In this document: positions 19,007-28,475 of the stretch, one piece after another
Position numbering within the stretch: position 1 is the stretch's first letter
How the letters are laid out: each line of letters opens with the position of its first letter
Source: Planctomycetales bacterium
GTDB taxonomy: Bacteria > 4484-113 > JAFGCY01
Assembly: GCA_022646745.1 (NCBI GenBank)
Contig: CP060262.1
Location: 930,001-962,000, forward strand
DNA length: 32,000 bases
Reading direction: 5' to 3'
The notes under the pieces: model-generated
Database searches by the model: none
What the model saw: only the letters and a program-made list of their open reading frames with translations
Told to the model about the DNA's origin: nothing
Made by a program: the position numbers and the translations under genes

Positions 19007-20215
19007 TCAGATCACGCGGCCGCTGGGCAGCGGTGCACCCTCGATCTTCAGCCTCACTTCCTGCACCGCCTGTTCACGCACCGGCAGGCGCCAGATCACG
19101 GCAATCACTGCGATCGCCGCGAACACCCAGCTGCCCATCCCGAGGGCCGCCGCTGCCAGAGCGACAACTGCCATGGCAGGCATCGCATAACCACAGATAC
19201 CGAGATTGAAGTGCCTGTCCCGCACGATGCACAGGGTGAGGAAGAATATCGCCATCGGCACCCCGAGCCACCAGGCGATGTCCGCCTGGCTGGCAGTGCC
19301 GTGGTGTTCGGACAGGTCAAGCTCGGCGGCGATCGCGGCCCCGGTCACGGCCAGCGAGCCGAAGATTAACAGGTGGCCGTAGCCCCAGATGAACACCGTG
19401 TTGAACTCGCGCTTGGGCAGGTGCTCGCGCTCCTCGAAGTACAGCCAGAACAGTGAGAACACTATCAGGAGCGCGGAGATCGCGGTGGATACAGGGGTCC
19501 AGCTCGGATGCTCGCCATACAGCTGGCCGAAGCCCATGCTGATTGCCAGCATGATCTCGCCGAGCGAGATGATCGTCAGCAGGCCGTAGCGCTCAATCAT
19601 GTGGTGGCGGTGGAAGGGCGTGTCCTTTGCCTTCTCGGCGAACATCGGCACACTGAATTCGACAAGGAAGCACACTGCGGCAAGGCCGTAGAACAGGGCG
19701 GGAGATGCATCGCGGGTGATGAAGTAGTAGGCGATCCAGCAGGCCTGGGCGAACATGATGCCACCGGCATAGCGCAGCGTCGTCAAGCGGTACTGCGGGT
19801 TGGCACTGGCCCGCAGCCACAGCGCAGCCATCCCGATGCGCATGATGCACCAGCCGAGCAGGCCCCAGCTGAAGTCATGGCTCTCGAAGATATGCCCCGC
19901 GCCGCCGGCGAACACCAGCTCTCCGCACATGATCAGCATCACGAGCAGGCGGTAGACCGGGCCGTCGTTGTCAAAGGCCGAGGCGAACCAGGTGAAGTTC
20001 ATCCAGGCCCACCAGATGCTGGTGAACAGGAAGATGAAGATCGGCAGGTTCTCCAGGCCATGGCCCTCGCTGATCGCATGGTGCAGGCCGGCGGTGGCGG
20101 CGGCGATCGCGATCACACTGACGAGATCGAAGAAAAGCTCAAGCTGGGTCGCAGGACGGTGCGACTCGTTCGGGTTGCGCGCCGGCAGCGGCAGGATCGG
20201 CTTGAATCGGCTCAT
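19007..20215 (-). CDS. ltrA: low-temperature-requirement LtrA-family membrane protein
   Basis: N-terminal signature ..ATQLELFFDLVSVIAIAAA followed by about 10 hydrophobic helices. Length is typical of LtrA. Confidence 0.85.
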   Translation of the reverse strand: MSRFKPILPLPARNPNESHRPATQLELFFDLVSVIAIAAATAGLHHAISEGHGLENLPIFIFLFTSIWWAWMNFTWFASAFDNDGPVYRLLVMLIMCGELVFAGGAGHIFESHDFSWGLLGWCIMRIGMAALWLRASANPQYRLTTLRYAGGIMFAQACWIAYYFITRDASPALFYGLAAVCFLVEFSVPMFAEKAKDTPFHRHHMIERYGLLTIISLGEIMLAISMGFGQLYGEHPSWTPVSTAISALLIVFSLFWLYFEEREHLPKREFNTVFIWGYGHLLIFGSLAVTGAAIAAELDLSEHHGTASQADIAWWLGVPMAIFFLTLCIVRDRHFNLGICGYAMPAMAVVALAAAALGMGSWVFAAIAVIAVIWRLPVREQAVQEVRLKIEGAPLPSGRVI

Positions 20216-20318
20216 GGATAGATTCTATGCCCTGCCGGGATTGGCAATGGGAGCGGGATTCCCCATTGATCAGCCAGTGATTGCACCAGGCAATTTTCCA
20301 GGGATTCCGGAATCCAGC

Positions 20319-20347
20319 TTGCCAATCCGGGGAAGTACGGGTAAGAT
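20319..20347 (+). promoter_or_regulatory. sigma70-type promoter P1 (TTGCCA - 17 nt - TAAGAT)
   Basis: -35 at 20319-20324 and -10 at 20342-20347. The predicted start (about 20354-20356) coincides with the 5' strand of the module-1 closing stem. A 14-bp perfect palindrome GGATTCCGGAATCC (20302-20315) lies just upstream. Confidence 0.6.
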
Positions 20348-20354
20348 CTCCATC

Positions 20355-20445
20355 TGCCAGCGGCGGAGGTGAGGATTACATCGGTGGCGTTGCTTCGGCA
20401 ACAGCGGGTTCGAAACCCGCAGACCCTCCCTGACAATCCCTGGCA
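20355..20445 (+). ncRNA. Y-RNA-like module 1 (short form with T-arm mimic)
   Basis: Closing stem UGCCAG/CUGGCA. GGAGG/CCUCC pairing. Shared UUACAUCGG motif. GUUGC-UUCG-GCAAC hairpin. tRNA T-arm mimic GCGGG-UUCGAAA-CCCGC. Its 5' and 3' strands align with module 3. Confidence 0.6.
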
Positions 20446-20462
20446 TGATTCAGGCTTCCACA

Positions 20463-20546
20463 GGCCCGGGCGGTGGGTGGCTGGTTTACATCGTCTTGAA
20501 AACGCAAATCACCAGCCCAGCAAATCCCCCGGGCCTTTCCGTTTTC
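20463..20546 (+). ncRNA. Y-RNA-like module 2 (simple stem-loop form, terminator-like 3' end)
   Basis: Outer stem GGCCCGGG/CCCGGGCC. Inner stem GGCUGGU/ACCAGCC. UUACAUCG motif in the apical region. Followed by UUUCCGUUUUC. Confidence 0.55.
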
Positions 20547-20635
20547 TGTGAATCAGCAGCATGCGGCAGCATTGCCAGACTGAGCGGTACCCATTAATTG
20601 CACCAGGCATTTTCCGGGAATTCCCGGATTCCACC

Positions 20636-20664
20636 TTGCCAATTGCTAAAAGCGCGGTTACTAT
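20636..20664 (+). promoter_or_regulatory. sigma70-type promoter P2 (TTGCCA - 17 nt - TACTAT), a duplicate of the P1 cassette
   Basis: -35 at 20636-20641 and -10 at 20659-20664. The upstream block ATTGCACCAGGCA(A)TTTTCC..GGA(A)TTCC..CTTGCCAAT is shared with P1. A 14-bp palindrome CCGGGAATTCCCGG lies at 20614-20627. Confidence 0.6.
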
Positions 20665-20670
20665 TCCCGT

Positions 20671-20804
20671 CCGCCAGCGGTGGCGGGGGGACTACATCGG
20701 GATATCCTGAGGTCGCGGGTTCAAATCCCGCCGCTTCCCAGGAAGCGTAGCTCAGTGGACCAGAGCACAGGACACTGCATCACCCCCCGGCGATTCCCTG
20801 GCGA
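20671..20804 (+). ncRNA. yrlA: YrlA-like Y RNA with circularly permuted tRNA-like domain
   Basis: Closing stems CGCCAG/CUGGCG and GGGGGG/CCCCCC. CUACAUCGG motif. Element order is: UCCUG, T-arm GCGGG-UUCAAAU-CCCGC (20715-20731), acceptor-like stem CGCUUCC/GGAAGCG closed by a short loop, D-arm GCUC-AGUGGACCA-GAGC (20750-20766), then CAGGA, which pairs back to UCCUG. Confidence 0.7.
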
Positions 20805-20814
20805 AAGCATATGT

Positions 20815-20887
20815 GGCCTGGGCGGCGGGTGGCTGGTTTACATCGCCTGTGAACCGAAATTCACCAGCCCGCTTGTACCCCCGGGCT
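20815..20887 (+). ncRNA. Y-RNA-like module 4 (paralog of module 2)
   Basis: Outer stem GGCCUGGG/CCCGGGCU (two G-U pairs). Inner stem GGCUGGU/ACCAGCC. Same UUACAUCG motif and the same 25-nt apical spacing as module 2. Confidence 0.55.
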
Positions 20888-20903
20888 GCGGGACAGTAAA
20901 ATC

Positions 20904-20966
20904 GGGCGGTGGGCAGCCGGAATACATCGGACAGTCACTTCGACATCCGGCTGCGTTATCCCCCCA
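20904..20966 (+). ncRNA. Y-RNA-like module 5 in the rsr 5' leader
   Basis: The 5' strand GGGCGGUGGGCAGCCGGAAUACAUCG aligns with modules 2 and 4. Perfect 9-bp stem GCAGCCGGA/UCCGGCUGC. A C6 tract ends 4 nt before the GGGAGA SD of rsr. Confidence 0.5.
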
Positions 20967-20980
20967 AACGGGAGACAGTG

Positions 20981-22495
20981 ATGGTTCTGTTCAGCAGGGG
21001 CAGGAAGGCCCCGAAGAAGCCGGACACCCATAACCTGGCGGGTGGCCGTGCGTACAGCCTCAGTCCGCAGCGCGAGCTGCTGGACATCGCGCTCACAAGC
21101 AAGCTGCAACGCCAGTTCTACCGCGAGCCGGATGAGACGATGCGGCGTGTGCGCAGGCTCGTGAAGGAAGCCGGGCCGGAGTTCGCCGCGCGCTGTGCAC
21201 TGTACACCCGCCACAGGATGGGCCTGCGCAGCATCAGCCACCTGCTGGCCGCCGAGGTCAGCCGCCGGGCATCCGGTGAGCAGTGGCTGTCGGACTTCTA
21301 CCGCCTGGTTGCCAGGCGGCCGGACGACATGCGAGAGATCATCGCCTGCATCATGGGTGGCCCGGAATTCGGTGAAGGTGTTGCCAGGAAGAGCGGCAAG
21401 GGACGCAAGCGCAACGGCCATGCATTGCCGAATTCGCTGAAGCGCGGATTCGCAAGGCGCTTCGAGCAGTTCGACGAGTACCAGCTCGGTGCTTACCGCG
21501 GTGAGGGTCAGGGCGTGTCGCTGGTTGACGTGATGCGGCTCGTGCACCCGCGTGAGACGGAGGCGATCCGCAAGCTCAAGGACGGCACGCTGCGCAGCCA
21601 GAAGCAGGACGCGAAACTGACGAGGAGCGGGCAGCTGGCTGACAACGCCGAGTCCGCCGCGCAGCTGAAGCGCGAGGTCTGGCATGCCGAGATCGAGCGG
21701 ATGGGCTACAACGCGCTCGTGATGAACGCGCGCGGAATCCTTGCCAGCGCCCCGGAGCTGAAGGGCCGTCTGTGCGAGCGGATCGAGGATGCTGAAGCCG
21801 TGCGGCGCAGCCTGATCCAGCCGCTGCAGATCTACCGCGCCTACCGCGAACTGGAGGACCGCCAGCTGAGGCTGAGCCTGAGCAGGGCGATCGATCTGGC
21901 ATGCGCCAATGTGCCGCGCTTCGAGGGCCGCACCCTGGTGGCATTCGACGAAAGCGGCAGCATGACCGCATGGACGCATGGTGACATGAAGATCCCGGCT
22001 ATCGAGTATGCATCGCTGTTCGCGGCGATCCTCGCCAGGTCGCAGGATGCGGACGTGATCAGCTTTGACACGACTGCGCGCTACCGGAAGTATGATCTTG
22101 GCAACACCACGCTGAGCATCGCTGAAGACTGGCATGTGGCGCGTGGCGGAGGCACTGACATGGGCACGATCTTCAGCAGGATGCGCGGGAAGTATGACCG
22201 CGTGATCGTGCTGACAGACATGCAGAGCTGGTATGGTGTCGATCCGGAGAAGGCGGCAGCGCTGTACGAGAAGAAGCAGCGCAGGCCGCTCAAGATCTAC
22301 AGCTTTGACCTGACCGGCTACGGCACGGCCCTGTTCCGCCCGGGCAGCATCCAGATGCTGTCCGGTGTCAGCTTCGGTGTGTTTGACACCATCGCCAGGC
22401 TGGACCAGGGCGGGGATGTGCTGATGGATGAAGTGAACGCGGTGCGCTTCACCGATGAATGGGTGCAGAGCGTGCGCGACAGCCACGGAAAGTGA
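20981..22495 (+). CDS. rsr: Rsr, Ro60-related protein (TROVE domain plus vWA domain)
   Basis: N-terminus NLAGG.AY.L.....L.......L...FY......T......L. .......FAARCALY.R..MGLRS..H.L.A is TROVE-like. The C-terminal vWA has MIDAS DESGSM and later GGGTDM ... VLTDMQSW. The start at 20981 is preferred (GGGAGA SD) because the track start at 20909 lies inside module 5. Confidence 0.9.
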   Translation: MVLFSRGRKAPKKPDTHNLAGGRAYSLSPQRELLDIALTSKLQRQFYREPDETMRRVRRLVKEAGPEFAARCALYTRHRMGLRSISHLLAAEVSRRASGEQWLSDFYRLVARRPDDMREIIACIMGGPEFGEGVARKSGKGRKRNGHALPNSLKRGFARRFEQFDEYQLGAYRGEGQGVSLVDVMRLVHPRETEAIRKLKDGTLRSQKQDAKLTRSGQLADNAESAAQLKREVWHAEIERMGYNALVMNARGILASAPELKGRLCERIEDAEAVRRSLIQPLQIYRAYRELEDRQLRLSLSRAIDLACANVPRFEGRTLVAFDESGSMTAWTHGDMKIPAIEYASLFAAILARSQDADVISFDTTARYRKYDLGNTTLSIAEDWHVARGGGTDMGTIFSRMRGKYDRVIVLTDMQSWYGVDPEKAAALYEKKQRRPLKIYSFDLTGYGTALFRPGSIQMLSGVSFGVFDTIARLDQGGDVLMDEVNAVRFTDEWVQSVRDSHGK

Positions 22496-27323: not shown

Positions 27324-28475
27324 TCAGATTCCGCCGGCCGGCGTGCCGTCGCCACGGGTACCGGTGAACTGCTCGACGCGGTTGAGCACCTTGTCGGAGA
27401 AGTCGGTGTTCTGCTGCTCCAGCAGCTTGAAGTCGTGCGGGCTGGAGGCCGCGGCCAGCGCGGTCTCGTAGGTGATCTGGCCGAGGTGGTACATCTTCAG
27501 CAGGTAGCGGTCGAAGGTGATCATGCCCTCGTCCTCACCTTCCTCCATCGCGAGCTTGATCAGCTCCGTCTTCTCCTCGTCCTCGATGAACTCCTTGATT
27601 CGCCCGGTGACCTTCATGATCTCCATCGCGGGGATACGGCCACCACCGACCATCGGCAGCAGTCGCATCGAGATGATGGACTTGATGGTCTCGGACAGCA
27701 TCAGGCGGGCCTGCTTCTGCATCGTCTCCGGATAGAAGTCGATCACGCGGCTGATGGTCTGGGTCACGTTCAGGGTGTGCAGGGTGGACAGCACCAGGTG
27801 GCCGGTGAGGGCGGCCTGGAAGGTGGCGTTGACCGTCTCACGGTCACGCATCTCACCGATCAGGATGATGTCCGGGTCCTCTCGCATGGCGCCACGGATG
27901 GCGTCCATGAAGGAGTTGGTGTCCACGCCCAGCTCGCGCTGGTTGATGATCGCTTCCTTGTCGGTCAGCACGTACTCGATCGGATCCTCGATGGTGAGGA
28001 TGTGCACCGGGCGGCGGTTGTTGACGTAGTCAATCATTGACGCCAGCGTGGTGGACTTACCCGAACCCGTTGTTCCCGTGAGGATGATGATGCCACGGCG
28101 TTCAAGGGAAAGTTCCTCAAGGATCAGCGGCAGGTTCAGTTCCTCAAAGCTCGGCACGACGTCGTTGACCAGTCGGAGAGCTGCGGCGACGGATCCCTTC
28201 TGGCGATACAAGTTGACGCGGAAGCGGCCCTGCAGGCCATCGTCGCCCTTGTACACGTATGCGAAGTCGATCTCGTTCTCCTCCTCCAGGCGGTACTCGC
28301 GCTTTGGGGTGAGCAGCTGCTTGGCGAAGCGCTCCATCTCCTCCTCATCGAGGATGTCCCAGTCGGCGGGCATCAGGTCGCCGTCCAGTCGCAGGAAGGG
28401 CGGACGGCCGGCGCCGAGGTGCAGGTCGGAAGCACCCTTCTTGATCACGATTCTCAGCAATTCGTCAATATGCAT
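27324..28475 (-). CDS. pilT: type IV pilus twitching-motility ATPase PilT
   Basis: MHIDELL......GASDLHL..G.PP..R.DG.L, Walker A (GTTGSGKSTTLA), IEDPIEY, Q.E......F..A.R.A.REDPD.I..GE.RD.ET and HLV.STLHT are all canonical PilT/PilU motifs. Confidence 0.9.
   Translation of the reverse strand: MHIDELLRIVIKKGASDLHLGAGRPPFLRLDGDLMPADWDILDEEEMERFAKQLLTPKREYRLEEENEIDFAYVYKGDDGLQGRFRVNLYRQKGSVAAALRLVNDVVPSFEELNLPLILEELSLERRGIIILTGTTGSGKSTTLASMIDYVNNRRPVHILTIEDPIEYVLTDKEAIINQRELGVDTNSFMDAIRGAMREDPDIILIGEMRDRETVNATFQAALTGHLVLSTLHTLNVTQTISRVIDFYPETMQKQARLMLSETIKSIISMRLLPMVGGGRIPAMEIMKVTGRIKEFIEDEEKTELIKLAMEEGEDEGMITFDRYLLKMYHLGQITYETALAAASSPHDFKLLEQQNTDFSDKVLNRVEQFTGTRGDGTPAGGI

Follow-up and report, generated by a model that had tools for sequence, protein, structure and literature searches.

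The rsr locus

We analyzed a 32,000-nucleotide (nt) stretch of a Planctomycetales genome (contig CP060262.1, 930,001-962,000, forward strand), hereafter the window, within which all coordinates are given. It contains an rsr gene, which codes for an ortholog of the Ro60/Rsr protein and is preceded on the same strand by five RNA modules and two promoter-like sites (Table 1). Taking the explanation developed below as a whole, module 3 is very probably the gene of a YrlA-class bacterial Y RNA, in which an Rsr-binding stem carries a circularly permuted tRNA-like domain.

The rsr product matches the TROVE (E 4.5e-11) and vWA_Ro60 (E 9.6e-7) domains as well as the structures of the phage phiLo Ro60 (9l5y, 9kop), Deinococcus radiodurans Rsr (2nvo), and Ro60 (9nen). 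The phiLo protein is its closest solved relative (E 1.8e-8).

Table 1 Features of the rsr locus. R1 is the covariance model described in the text; MFE, minimum free energy; bp, base pairs.
Feature	Positions	Strand	Basis or remark
Module 3, whole YrlA-type Y RNA (Rsr-binding stem and tRNA-like domain)	20671-20804	+	Sequence, Rfam, fold, R1
tRNA-like core of module 3	20705-20772	+	R1 match
Putative Rsr-binding helix, 5' strand (CGCCAG, bulged C 20678, GGUGG)	20672-20683	+	Fold, covariation
Outer stem of module 3 (CGCCAG / CUGGCG)	20672-20677 / 20798-20803	+	
Inner stem (GGGGGG / CCCCCC)	20685-20690 / 20783-20788	+	MFE folds
3' strands (CCCCCC of inner stem; ..UUCC-CUGGCG of bulged helix)	20783-20803	+	
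CUAC, conserved YUAY motif of YrlA RNAs	20692-20695	+	
UCCUG, anticodon-stem 3' strand equivalent	20705-20709	+	tRNA positions 39-43
AGGUC, 5-nt variable loop	20710-20714	+	Final C (20714) is C48, Levitt partner of G15 (20755)
T-arm GCGGG-UUCAAAU-CCCGC	20715-20731	+	Rfam, R1, covariation
Closed acceptor-stem hairpin CGCUUC-CCAG-GAAGCG	20732-20747	+	6 bp and tetraloop
UA linker	20748-20749	+	tRNA U8-A9
D-arm GCUC-AGUGGACCA-GAGC	20750-20766	+	Rfam, R1; stem is the near-invariant GCUC/GAGC of the family
A, equivalent of A26	20767	+	
CAGGA, anticodon-stem 5' strand equivalent	20768-20772	+	tRNA positions 27-31
Module 1, reduced mimic with the same stem design	20354-20447	+	Fold, R1; downstream of P1
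Module 2, short Y-like hairpin (YrlB-like)	20462-20536	+	U-rich tract after it
Module 4, short Y-like hairpin	20813-20889	+	84% identical to module 2 over 56 nt
Module 5, short Y-like hairpin	20903-20965	+	Ends 5 nt before the rsr ribosome-binding site
Promoter-like site P1, sigma-70 type	20319-20347	+	
Promoter-like site P2	20636-20664	+	TTGCCA-17 nt-TACTAT
rsr ribosome-binding site GGGAGA	20970-20975	+	
rsr, Ro60/Rsr ortholog, 504 amino acids, TROVE and Ro60-vWA	20981-22495	+	Domain and structure matches
PilT-like ATPase gene	27324-28475	-	
Putative Rsr-binding helix regions	Window 20672-20683 with 20794-20803 and the corresponding parts of modules 1, 2, 4, and 5; L084 92-398; L205 590-910		

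Assignment of module 3 to the YrlA class

The YrlA class was published in 2014 (Chen et al., PMC4201824; Rfam RF02553), with 355 candidates from 254 bacteria and 22 phages and the expectation of more sequence variants, and a crystal structure of its tRNA-like domain followed (PDB 6cu1, Wang et al. 2018). An initial annotation of the window had read module 3 as a YrlA-type tRNA mimic, opened at the anticodon loop, closed at the acceptor end, and grafted onto an Rsr-type stem. Both the architecture and the class hold up: every element that it listed lies in the order given at 20705-20772 (+), inside a long stem, and the homology models and the linkage to rsr agree. Its description of the mimic as complete is right for the T, D, acceptor, and anticodon-stem parts, all of which are present, and goes too far for the anticodon loop and a free CCA end, which module 3 lacks.

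Most hallmarks of the class are found together in module 3. A Ro60/Rsr (TROVE) gene lies on the same strand within 4 kb, as the rsr ATG (20981) follows the end of the module at a distance of 177 nt. The T loop is tRNA-like (G53, U54 U55 C56 R57 A58, C61) and is followed on its 3' side by a D stem of the GCUC/GAGC type with GG in its loop; between them stand the closed acceptor hairpin and the UA linker. A pyrimidine ends the variable loop and can form the Levitt pair C20714:G20755, and a YUAY motif (CUAC) lies 5' of the tRNA-like domain. All modules of the window and of L084, an rsr locus of the same clade, have YUAC or RUAC followed by AUC.

We built a covariance model (R1) on cores linked to rsr in other phyla, 38 in all, excluding the window copy and L084. 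With filters off, it matches the core of module 3 over its full length at 70.3 bits (E 4e-18) with zero non-canonical pairs. The next-best match in the 32 kb (20404-20420, 12.5 bits, E 0.07) covers just the module 1 T-arm; anything further is noise. The L084-A module, which stands beside an Rsr 59% identical to that of the window, scores 57.2 bits. A permissive scan of 20200-21000 with RF02553, the comparison proposed in the initial annotation, places model positions 1-114 on 20684-20792 (42.9 bits, E 4.4e-8), thus full length, and the alignment matches the T, acceptor, and D helices alike.

The MFE of module 3 is -64.6 kcal/mol (z = -3.4), and none of 200 shuffles folds as well. The isolated core has the cloverleaf as its MFE fold and, when un-permuted in silico, is called a tRNA by ARAGORN; the tRNA identity called for this construct is meaningless, since its anticodon loop was supplied arbitrarily by us. 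Module 3 as a full mimic has exact class-I tRNA geometry and an acceptor stem capable of 7 bp. Its D loop AGUGGACCA (20754-20762) has no U at 20/20a, the position that DusA modifies in Salmonella YrlA, and from these letters U16 would be the only position of the loop open to dihydrouridine formation.

Conservation of the pairings in homologs

We collected rsr loci (numbered with the prefix L) and searched them by pattern for the permuted order of T-loop, hairpin, UA, and D-arm, which was found in about 50. All pattern matches lie on the rsr strand, as do 39 of the 39 R1 matches from the 43 loci searched. Because MAFFT did not align the linkers of module 3 and L084-A reliably, position-anchored element alignments were used instead; the pairing statistics that follow refer to 47 distinct modules aligned in this way. 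This set had been selected for the D stem, for G53-C61, and for an acceptor hairpin that closes.

Standard pairs fill 92.0% of the pair cells, compared with 67.3% in shuffles and 35-48% in slid controls, and the covariation score is 0.675 versus 0.166, a value reached by none of 500 shuffles. The T stem is 99.6% paired, with double changes at three pairs, and the acceptor hairpin 98.7%, with double changes at five of five. The Levitt pair 15:48 is kept in 95.7% (C:G in 39 modules, U:A in 5). Compensatory changes in homologs thus preserve the pairings of the T stem, the acceptor, and the Levitt pair, the kind of conservation to which the initial annotation had tied its fold; the D stem is also 100% paired, largely as a result of the selection pattern, and the UA linker is invariant in 47/47 modules, though the pattern demanded it. 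In the equivalent of the anticodon stem, pairs 27-43 (98%) and 28-42 (96%; G-C 16, A-U 16, C-G 8, U-A 5) are conserved, with 29-41, 30-40, and 31-39 paired in 70%, 32%, and 57%, respectively.

Within the clade of the window, L084 has a sigma-70-like promoter and three modules. L084-A, the first of them, carries the T-arm GCAGG-UUCAAAU-CCUGC, with a compensatory G-C to A-U change in the T stem relative to the window, followed by the 5-bp hairpin CACGG-GCAA-CCGUG, UA, and the D-arm GCUC-AGCGGUA-GAGC. Three further loci (L081-L083) encode an Rsr 98% identical to that of the window and are uninformative on covariation, as their module 3 is 100% identical. A nearly identical locus is present in the sources SRR6747763/4 and ERZ27309058. 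A metagenome scan with the pattern GCGGYGG-N9/10-TACWTC-N12-42-GGTTCRANNCC gave, among the matches listed, mostly chance occurrences in GC-rich coding DNA; the useful ones among them were L091/L204, L122, L093, L138, and L142.

The collection also held some unusual contexts. The metagenome contig L093 has three tandem YrlA-type modules at 112-474 (R1 40.7, 65.6, and 62.9 bits) beside a distant rsr (27.7% identity over one tblastn segment, query residues 21-160); in one of these modules the V arm is long and the D-arm region atypical, and ARAGORN calls no tRNA there. In several metagenome-assembled genomes of Verrucomicrobiota, Sericytochromatia, and other groups, rsr and YrlA lie directly downstream of tRNA arrays (L051 874-2854, L059 117-2825, L025 1495-2864, L206 165-2155, L054, and L035), with about 10 to 20 tRNA-model matches in L025 and L059 and fewer in the others. 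In L051, they also lie downstream of a GOLLD RNA (RF02032, 159 bits). These contexts may be phage-derived or tRNA islands.

Points weighing on the assignment

A number of observations speak against this assignment or parts of it. Module 3, at 42.9 bits, does not reach the RF02553 gathering score of 69 bits. The published Rsr-recognition motif GNCGAAN0-1G is absent, and GGUGGC is found 13 nt before the YUAY motif. The window has no rtcB, rtcA, or rtcR, unlike the Salmonella operon. The D stem, G53-C61, and acceptor closure give no independent support, since they were imposed by selection. The lower three pairs of the anticodon-stem equivalent are just 32-70% paired across the 47 modules, and the nearest-neighbor model favors a local hairpin over this stem by 3.7 kcal/mol. 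On the functional side, removing the T-arm from Yrn1 of D. radiodurans had no clear effect on assembly of the complex, and no partner-recruiting role of the tRNA-like domain has been demonstrated, even in model organisms (PMC4201824).

The sub-threshold score is no argument against membership in the class, because 14 other rsr loci gave 20 YrlA-model matches, and every one of these likewise lies at just 35-51 bits. RF02553 appears too narrow for the YrlAs of the non-enterobacterial rsr loci tested. As for the recognition motif, it was reported as conserved in the Rsr-binding part and not in the tRNA-like domain (Chen et al. 2014, PMC4201824), and its CGAA core contributes to Ro60 binding in phage phiLo (PMC12135203). 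In a set of 48 YrlA-type modules (loci L003-L122), none has a literal CGAA core at the position scored by an R-G-Y-G-R-N search; the homologous position reads AGUGAG in 21/48 and AGCGAN in 7/48 modules of other phyla and GGYGGN in the clade of the window. As the CGAA core is absent from this position throughout the set, strict GNCGAAN0-1G is not family-wide and the general pattern is R-G-Y-G-R-N. We therefore treat GGUGGC of module 3 as a variant Rsr site and not as a ground for exclusion from YrlA.

The helix around this site was compared in 12 modules, a small set with strands extracted by hand. It is 98.8% paired, with double changes at four of seven pairs, and C-GG-Y-GG around the bulge is invariant. 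The five modules of the window, the three of L084, and the three of L205 (Rsr 44% identical) share a 5' GCGGYGG, 9-10 nt, UAC(A/U)UC and a 3' (A/U)(U/A)CC-C, and their MFE folds form the outer helix with a single bulged C, so that the helix of the clade can be written 5'-NNNNG-C(bulged)-GG-Y-GG / (A/U)(U/A)CC-CNNNN-3'. Tentatively, and with distinctly less confidence than we place in the class of module 3, we suggest that the Rsr proteins of this clade (window, L084, and L205; Rsr 44-59% identical to that of the window) may recognize their Y RNAs through this CGAA-less two-strand helix, each rsr being accompanied by an array of three to five Y RNAs that mixes full mimics, hairpin-plus-T-arm mimics, and plain hairpins. 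One Rsr ring programmed with several partners could follow, and the full mimic could be cut by RNase P and receive CCA.

The anticodon-stem equivalent

The pairing of CAGGA with UCCUG, proposed at the outset, is possible, and the two strands probably do pair in module 3; a 5-bp stem is, in contrast, not a family-wide feature, since only 27-43 and 28-42 are conserved. The main competitor concerns the fold of the same RNA: UCCUG might instead be taken up in a local hairpin (UCGGG-AUAU-CCUGA) that resembles the V arm found in most YrlAs, with the core held by the T, D, and acceptor arms and whatever joins the GGGGGG/CCCCCC stem. This hairpin is part of the MFE fold, its pairs having ensemble probabilities of 0.94-1.0, whereas the fold with the anticodon stem reaches -60.9 kcal/mol and its pairs an ensemble probability of about 0.001.

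The family offers precedents for both designs. In the 48-module set, 26 modules are of a V type, in which CGN after YUAY-UU pairs with positions 39-41 (N'CG) in a 3-bp hairpin with a 6-7-nt loop and just two anticodon-stem pairs are kept. This small hairpin, which is the 'V' arm of Chen et al. 2014, covaries (A-U 20, U-A 6, C-G 6, G-C 3). All three lower positions of the anticodon stem can pair in 11/48 modules, the window included, and several modules without a V hairpin have 5-bp stems: CUGAA/UUCAG, CGAAA/UUUCG, UCAAU/AUUGA, and UCCUG/CAGGA in the window. Both designs occur in the clade of the window itself, where L084-A has the V hairpin and module 3 the 5-bp stem. As relatives with perfect but different 5-bp stems exist and are a minority, the 5-bp stem is precedented and not family-wide.

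The hairpin of the window is however out of register with the V hairpin of the family, matching two of its three pairs, and would disrupt the conserved pairs 27-43 and 28-42. In addition, the isolated core folds as a cloverleaf, and energy models omit the tertiary contacts of tRNAs. We consequently regard the local hairpin as the less likely fold, though a credible one, and keep the UCCUG/CAGGA stem in what follows.

The acceptor stem

Pairing of the acceptor strands, described in the initial annotation with a tiny CA loop, is well supported across the family; the loop itself has to be redrawn. A 2-nt loop cannot sterically close a 7-bp stem, and the acceptor of module 3 is therefore a 6-bp stem with a CCAG tetraloop, the form present in the MFE fold; a seventh pair, G:C, is possible solely if the loop is cut. 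Seven potential pairs, the length in tRNA, is also the commonest value among the modules (20/48).

Such a cut would turn module 3 into a two-piece Y RNA: RNase P would cleave 5' of G20741 to give a 7-bp acceptor, and the 3' end, ...CGCUUCC-CA, would be trimmed and then repaired by the CCA-adding enzyme. The seven potential pairs and a loop that reads CCA-G fit this scheme, and there is a precedent in Mycobacterium smegmatis YrlA, whose 7-bp acceptor stem is cleaved by RNase P and acquires CCA (PMC4201824). However, the loop is closed in module 3, and the 5 bp and GCAA loop of L084-A mean that a 7-bp acceptor is not conserved in the clade. Cleavage was also undetected for Salmonella YrlA and D. 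radiodurans Yrn1, and most YrlA acceptors were judged poor RNase P substrates (PMC4201824, bioRxiv 10.1101/312249). Cleavage thus seems improbable, and we describe module 3 as an RNA with a closed acceptor.

Organization of the array

The region upstream of rsr is partly duplicated. The blocks P1-M1-M2 (20270-20545) and P2-M3-M4 (20587-20895), in which M stands for module, form a tandem duplication with 77% identity and an indel of about 42 nt; module 1 would therefore derive, by reduction, from an ancestor like module 3, or vice versa. Module 1 was already described as keeping only a T-arm and a UUCG hairpin, and so it does: the hairpin GUUGC-UUCG-GCAAC (20389-20402) is followed by a T-arm (20404-20420), with no D-arm and no acceptor hairpin. 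The third module of L205 (about 800-905) has the same design, and the occurrence of a hairpin-plus-T-arm module in two members of the Rsr clade suggests a distinct reduced type of Y RNA and not a decayed copy. MAFFT aligns the UUCG hairpin of module 1 with the acceptor 5' strand and D-arm of module 3, which could point to shared descent, but 12/20 matches in GC-rich sequence are not significant.

Two sigma-70-type sites were found on the + strand versus 0.3 expected. By its position, P2 would set the start of transcription at about 20670-20673, where the 5' edge of module 3 lies. A promoter of the sigma-54/RtcR kind known from Salmonella was considered and rejected: only the spacing of the GG/TTGC dinucleotides fits, the same bases form the sigma-70 -35 box, which a 17-nt spacer separates from a -10 box, and rtcR, rtcB, and rtcA are absent from the window. 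Upstream of each promoter-like site lies a conserved, palindrome-containing block of about 45 nt (20280-20335 and 20597-20650), the palindromes being ATTGC-N5-GCAAT and, in the second copy, CCGGGAATTCCCGG; these blocks look like the operator of some regulator. L084 differs, with the palindrome ATCTATCTAGATAGA(C) placed between the -35 and the -10 box.

Directly after the outer stem of module 2, GGCCCGGG/CCCGGGCC, comes UUUCCGUUUUCU (20537-20550), and the two together could terminate the P1 transcript; the terminator scan missed this stem because its 'loop' is the entire module. No gene follows the P1-M1-M2 block. The scan found nothing terminator-like between module 3 and rsr, which fits a precursor of modules 3, 4, and 5 with rsr, as in M. 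smegmatis and D. radiodurans.

The same lack of a terminator, the placement of module 5 directly before the ribosome-binding site, and the putative Rsr-binding helix in every module would also be expected if the modules acted mainly in cis, as a structured 5' leader of rsr involved in autoregulation or mRNA stabilization, and not as free Y RNAs. Yet a single precursor is processed into YrlA and YrlB in M. smegmatis, a polycistronic one gives rise to Yrn1 and Yrn2 in D. radiodurans (PMC4201824), and the first block of the window stands before no gene. We therefore think it unlikely that a cis leader is their main role, while noting that the two roles are not mutually exclusive, and retain free Y RNAs as the preferred reading.

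That module 3 is instead a relic of two adjacent tRNA genes (3' half of the first, 5' half of the second) or a tRNA or tmRNA gene in permuted form is hardly credible: tandem tRNA junctions do imitate the T-then-D order, a source of false positives flagged by Chen et al. 2014 (PMC4201824), and reach up to about 39 bits with R1 (L206), but 70.3 bits is well above such scores, the closing hairpin covaries across phyla, the acceptor strands are perfectly complementary and merely 2 nt apart, and no upstream D-arm, downstream T-arm, anticodon loop, or tag reading frame is present. ARAGORN finds no tRNA or tmRNA in the window and Rfam no tRNA; the anticodon stem opens not into a 7-nt loop but into a 14/10-nt internal loop and a further stem. 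Nor does Rfam point to a tmRNA gene, its tmRNA model matching the 18-nt T-arm alone (17.3 bits versus a gathering score of 47). The R1 matches of L206 were rejected as Y RNAs, being tRNA-tRNA junctions inside a 12-tRNA array, and because these junctions reach that range, R1 scores below about 40 bits need caution.

Elsewhere in the window, the neighbors of rsr include LtrA, an MFS/HlyD efflux pair, TenA, and others, and PKD, dockerin, and CAP-domain proteins are also encoded (62.6% G+C). This neighborhood looks chromosomal and not phage-like.

Comparison with known Y RNAs

Salmonella Typhimurium YrlA and module 3 both adjoin rsr on the same strand and have paired ends with an Rsr site, a YUAY motif, and the order T-arm, closed acceptor hairpin, UA, and D-arm; they also share the G15:C48 Levitt pair, the GG of the D loop, the T-loop UUCRA, and an equivalent of the anticodon stem that passes into the Rsr stem. 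The window differs in having YGG-N instead of CGAA in the Rsr motif, a sigma-70-like promoter with no rtcR/rtcBA operon, a full 5-bp anticodon stem and canonical 5-nt variable loop where YrlA has a kinked stem or V arm, a D loop lacking the U at 20/20a, and five modules at the locus.

The locus can be likened to that of M. smegmatis, where YrlA and YrlB, processed from one precursor, also lie upstream of rsr without RtcR control, the acceptor is likewise capable of 7 bp, and YrlB carries a T-arm only, like module 1; M. smegmatis however has two modules, not five, and a different Rsr-motif sequence. The putative Rsr helix of the window shows conservation of both strands and a bulged C, whereas the 5' strand alone can be recognized in Salmonella and M. 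smegmatis. In this respect, the window resembles D. radiodurans Yrn1/Yrn2 and the metazoan Y RNAs, whose Ro-binding helix is conserved on both strands and has a bulged nucleotide. D. radiodurans also has several Y RNAs upstream of rsr on a polycistronic precursor, and Yrn1 a T-arm, but the T and D elements of Yrn1 are oriented otherwise and it lacks a full D-arm; in metazoan Y RNAs, a tRNA-like domain is absent. Thermus phage phiLo, with its Ro60 and Yrl1/Yrl2 (PMC12135203; PDB 9kop, 9l5y), shares short Y-like hairpins upstream of the Ro60 gene; its Yrls differ in having been identified by CGAA, and no tRNA-like domain is described for them (PMC12135203).

Proposed mechanism

From the sequence of module 3, its compatibility with the structure, its homologs, the covariation, and the linkage to rsr, we infer how this RNA might be expressed, processed, bound by Rsr, joined to a partner, and modified, drawing on work on other Y RNAs (PMC4201824, bioRxiv 10.1101/312249, PMC12135203). 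Transcription would begin from the sigma-70-type promoter ending at 20664 and give one precursor with modules 3, 4, and 5 and the rsr mRNA, out of which module 3 would be processed. Its ends would pair into a long stem, the lower part of which, 5'-CCAG-C(bulged)-GG-U-GG / UUCC-CUGG-3', would dock on the Ro60/Rsr ring. The upper part would form an L-shaped tRNA look-alike from the T-arm, the D-arm, the loop-closed acceptor, the 5-nt variable loop, and the anticodon-stem equivalent, the last of these running into the Rsr-binding stem.

If Deinococcus and Salmonella are taken as models, the RNA may tether Rsr to a partner, the known case being the exoribonuclease PNPase, and under stress the tethered complex could steer structured RNA to decay or repair. 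The tRNA-like half would be the partner-binding, nuclease-resistant module, and is a likely substrate of tRNA-modifying enzymes such as TruB.

Significance

As the architecture was already published in 2014 and 2018, what is new here is minor, namely the uncultured, likely planctomycete host, the CGAA-less bulged-C helix, and the unusually large, duplicated array of five modules, and the locus leaves the current understanding of Y RNAs unchanged. It extends YrlA-type Y RNAs to a sparsely sampled lineage that is probably planctomycete. Its value is chiefly one of annotation: Rfam at gathering thresholds has zero matches across the window, so that module 3 is invisible to it at the curated threshold and to tRNA finders as well. 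Since every YrlA-type module tested in 14 rsr loci of other lineages is equally invisible, genome records probably under-annotate this family. Searches for Y RNAs have used the CGAA motif of Rsr recognition, which is, moreover, not universal. Finally, the window offers a natural series within one locus, with a full mimic, a T-arm-only mimic, and plain hairpins all on the same Rsr-binding helix, and this series could help to ask what the tRNA-like domain adds.

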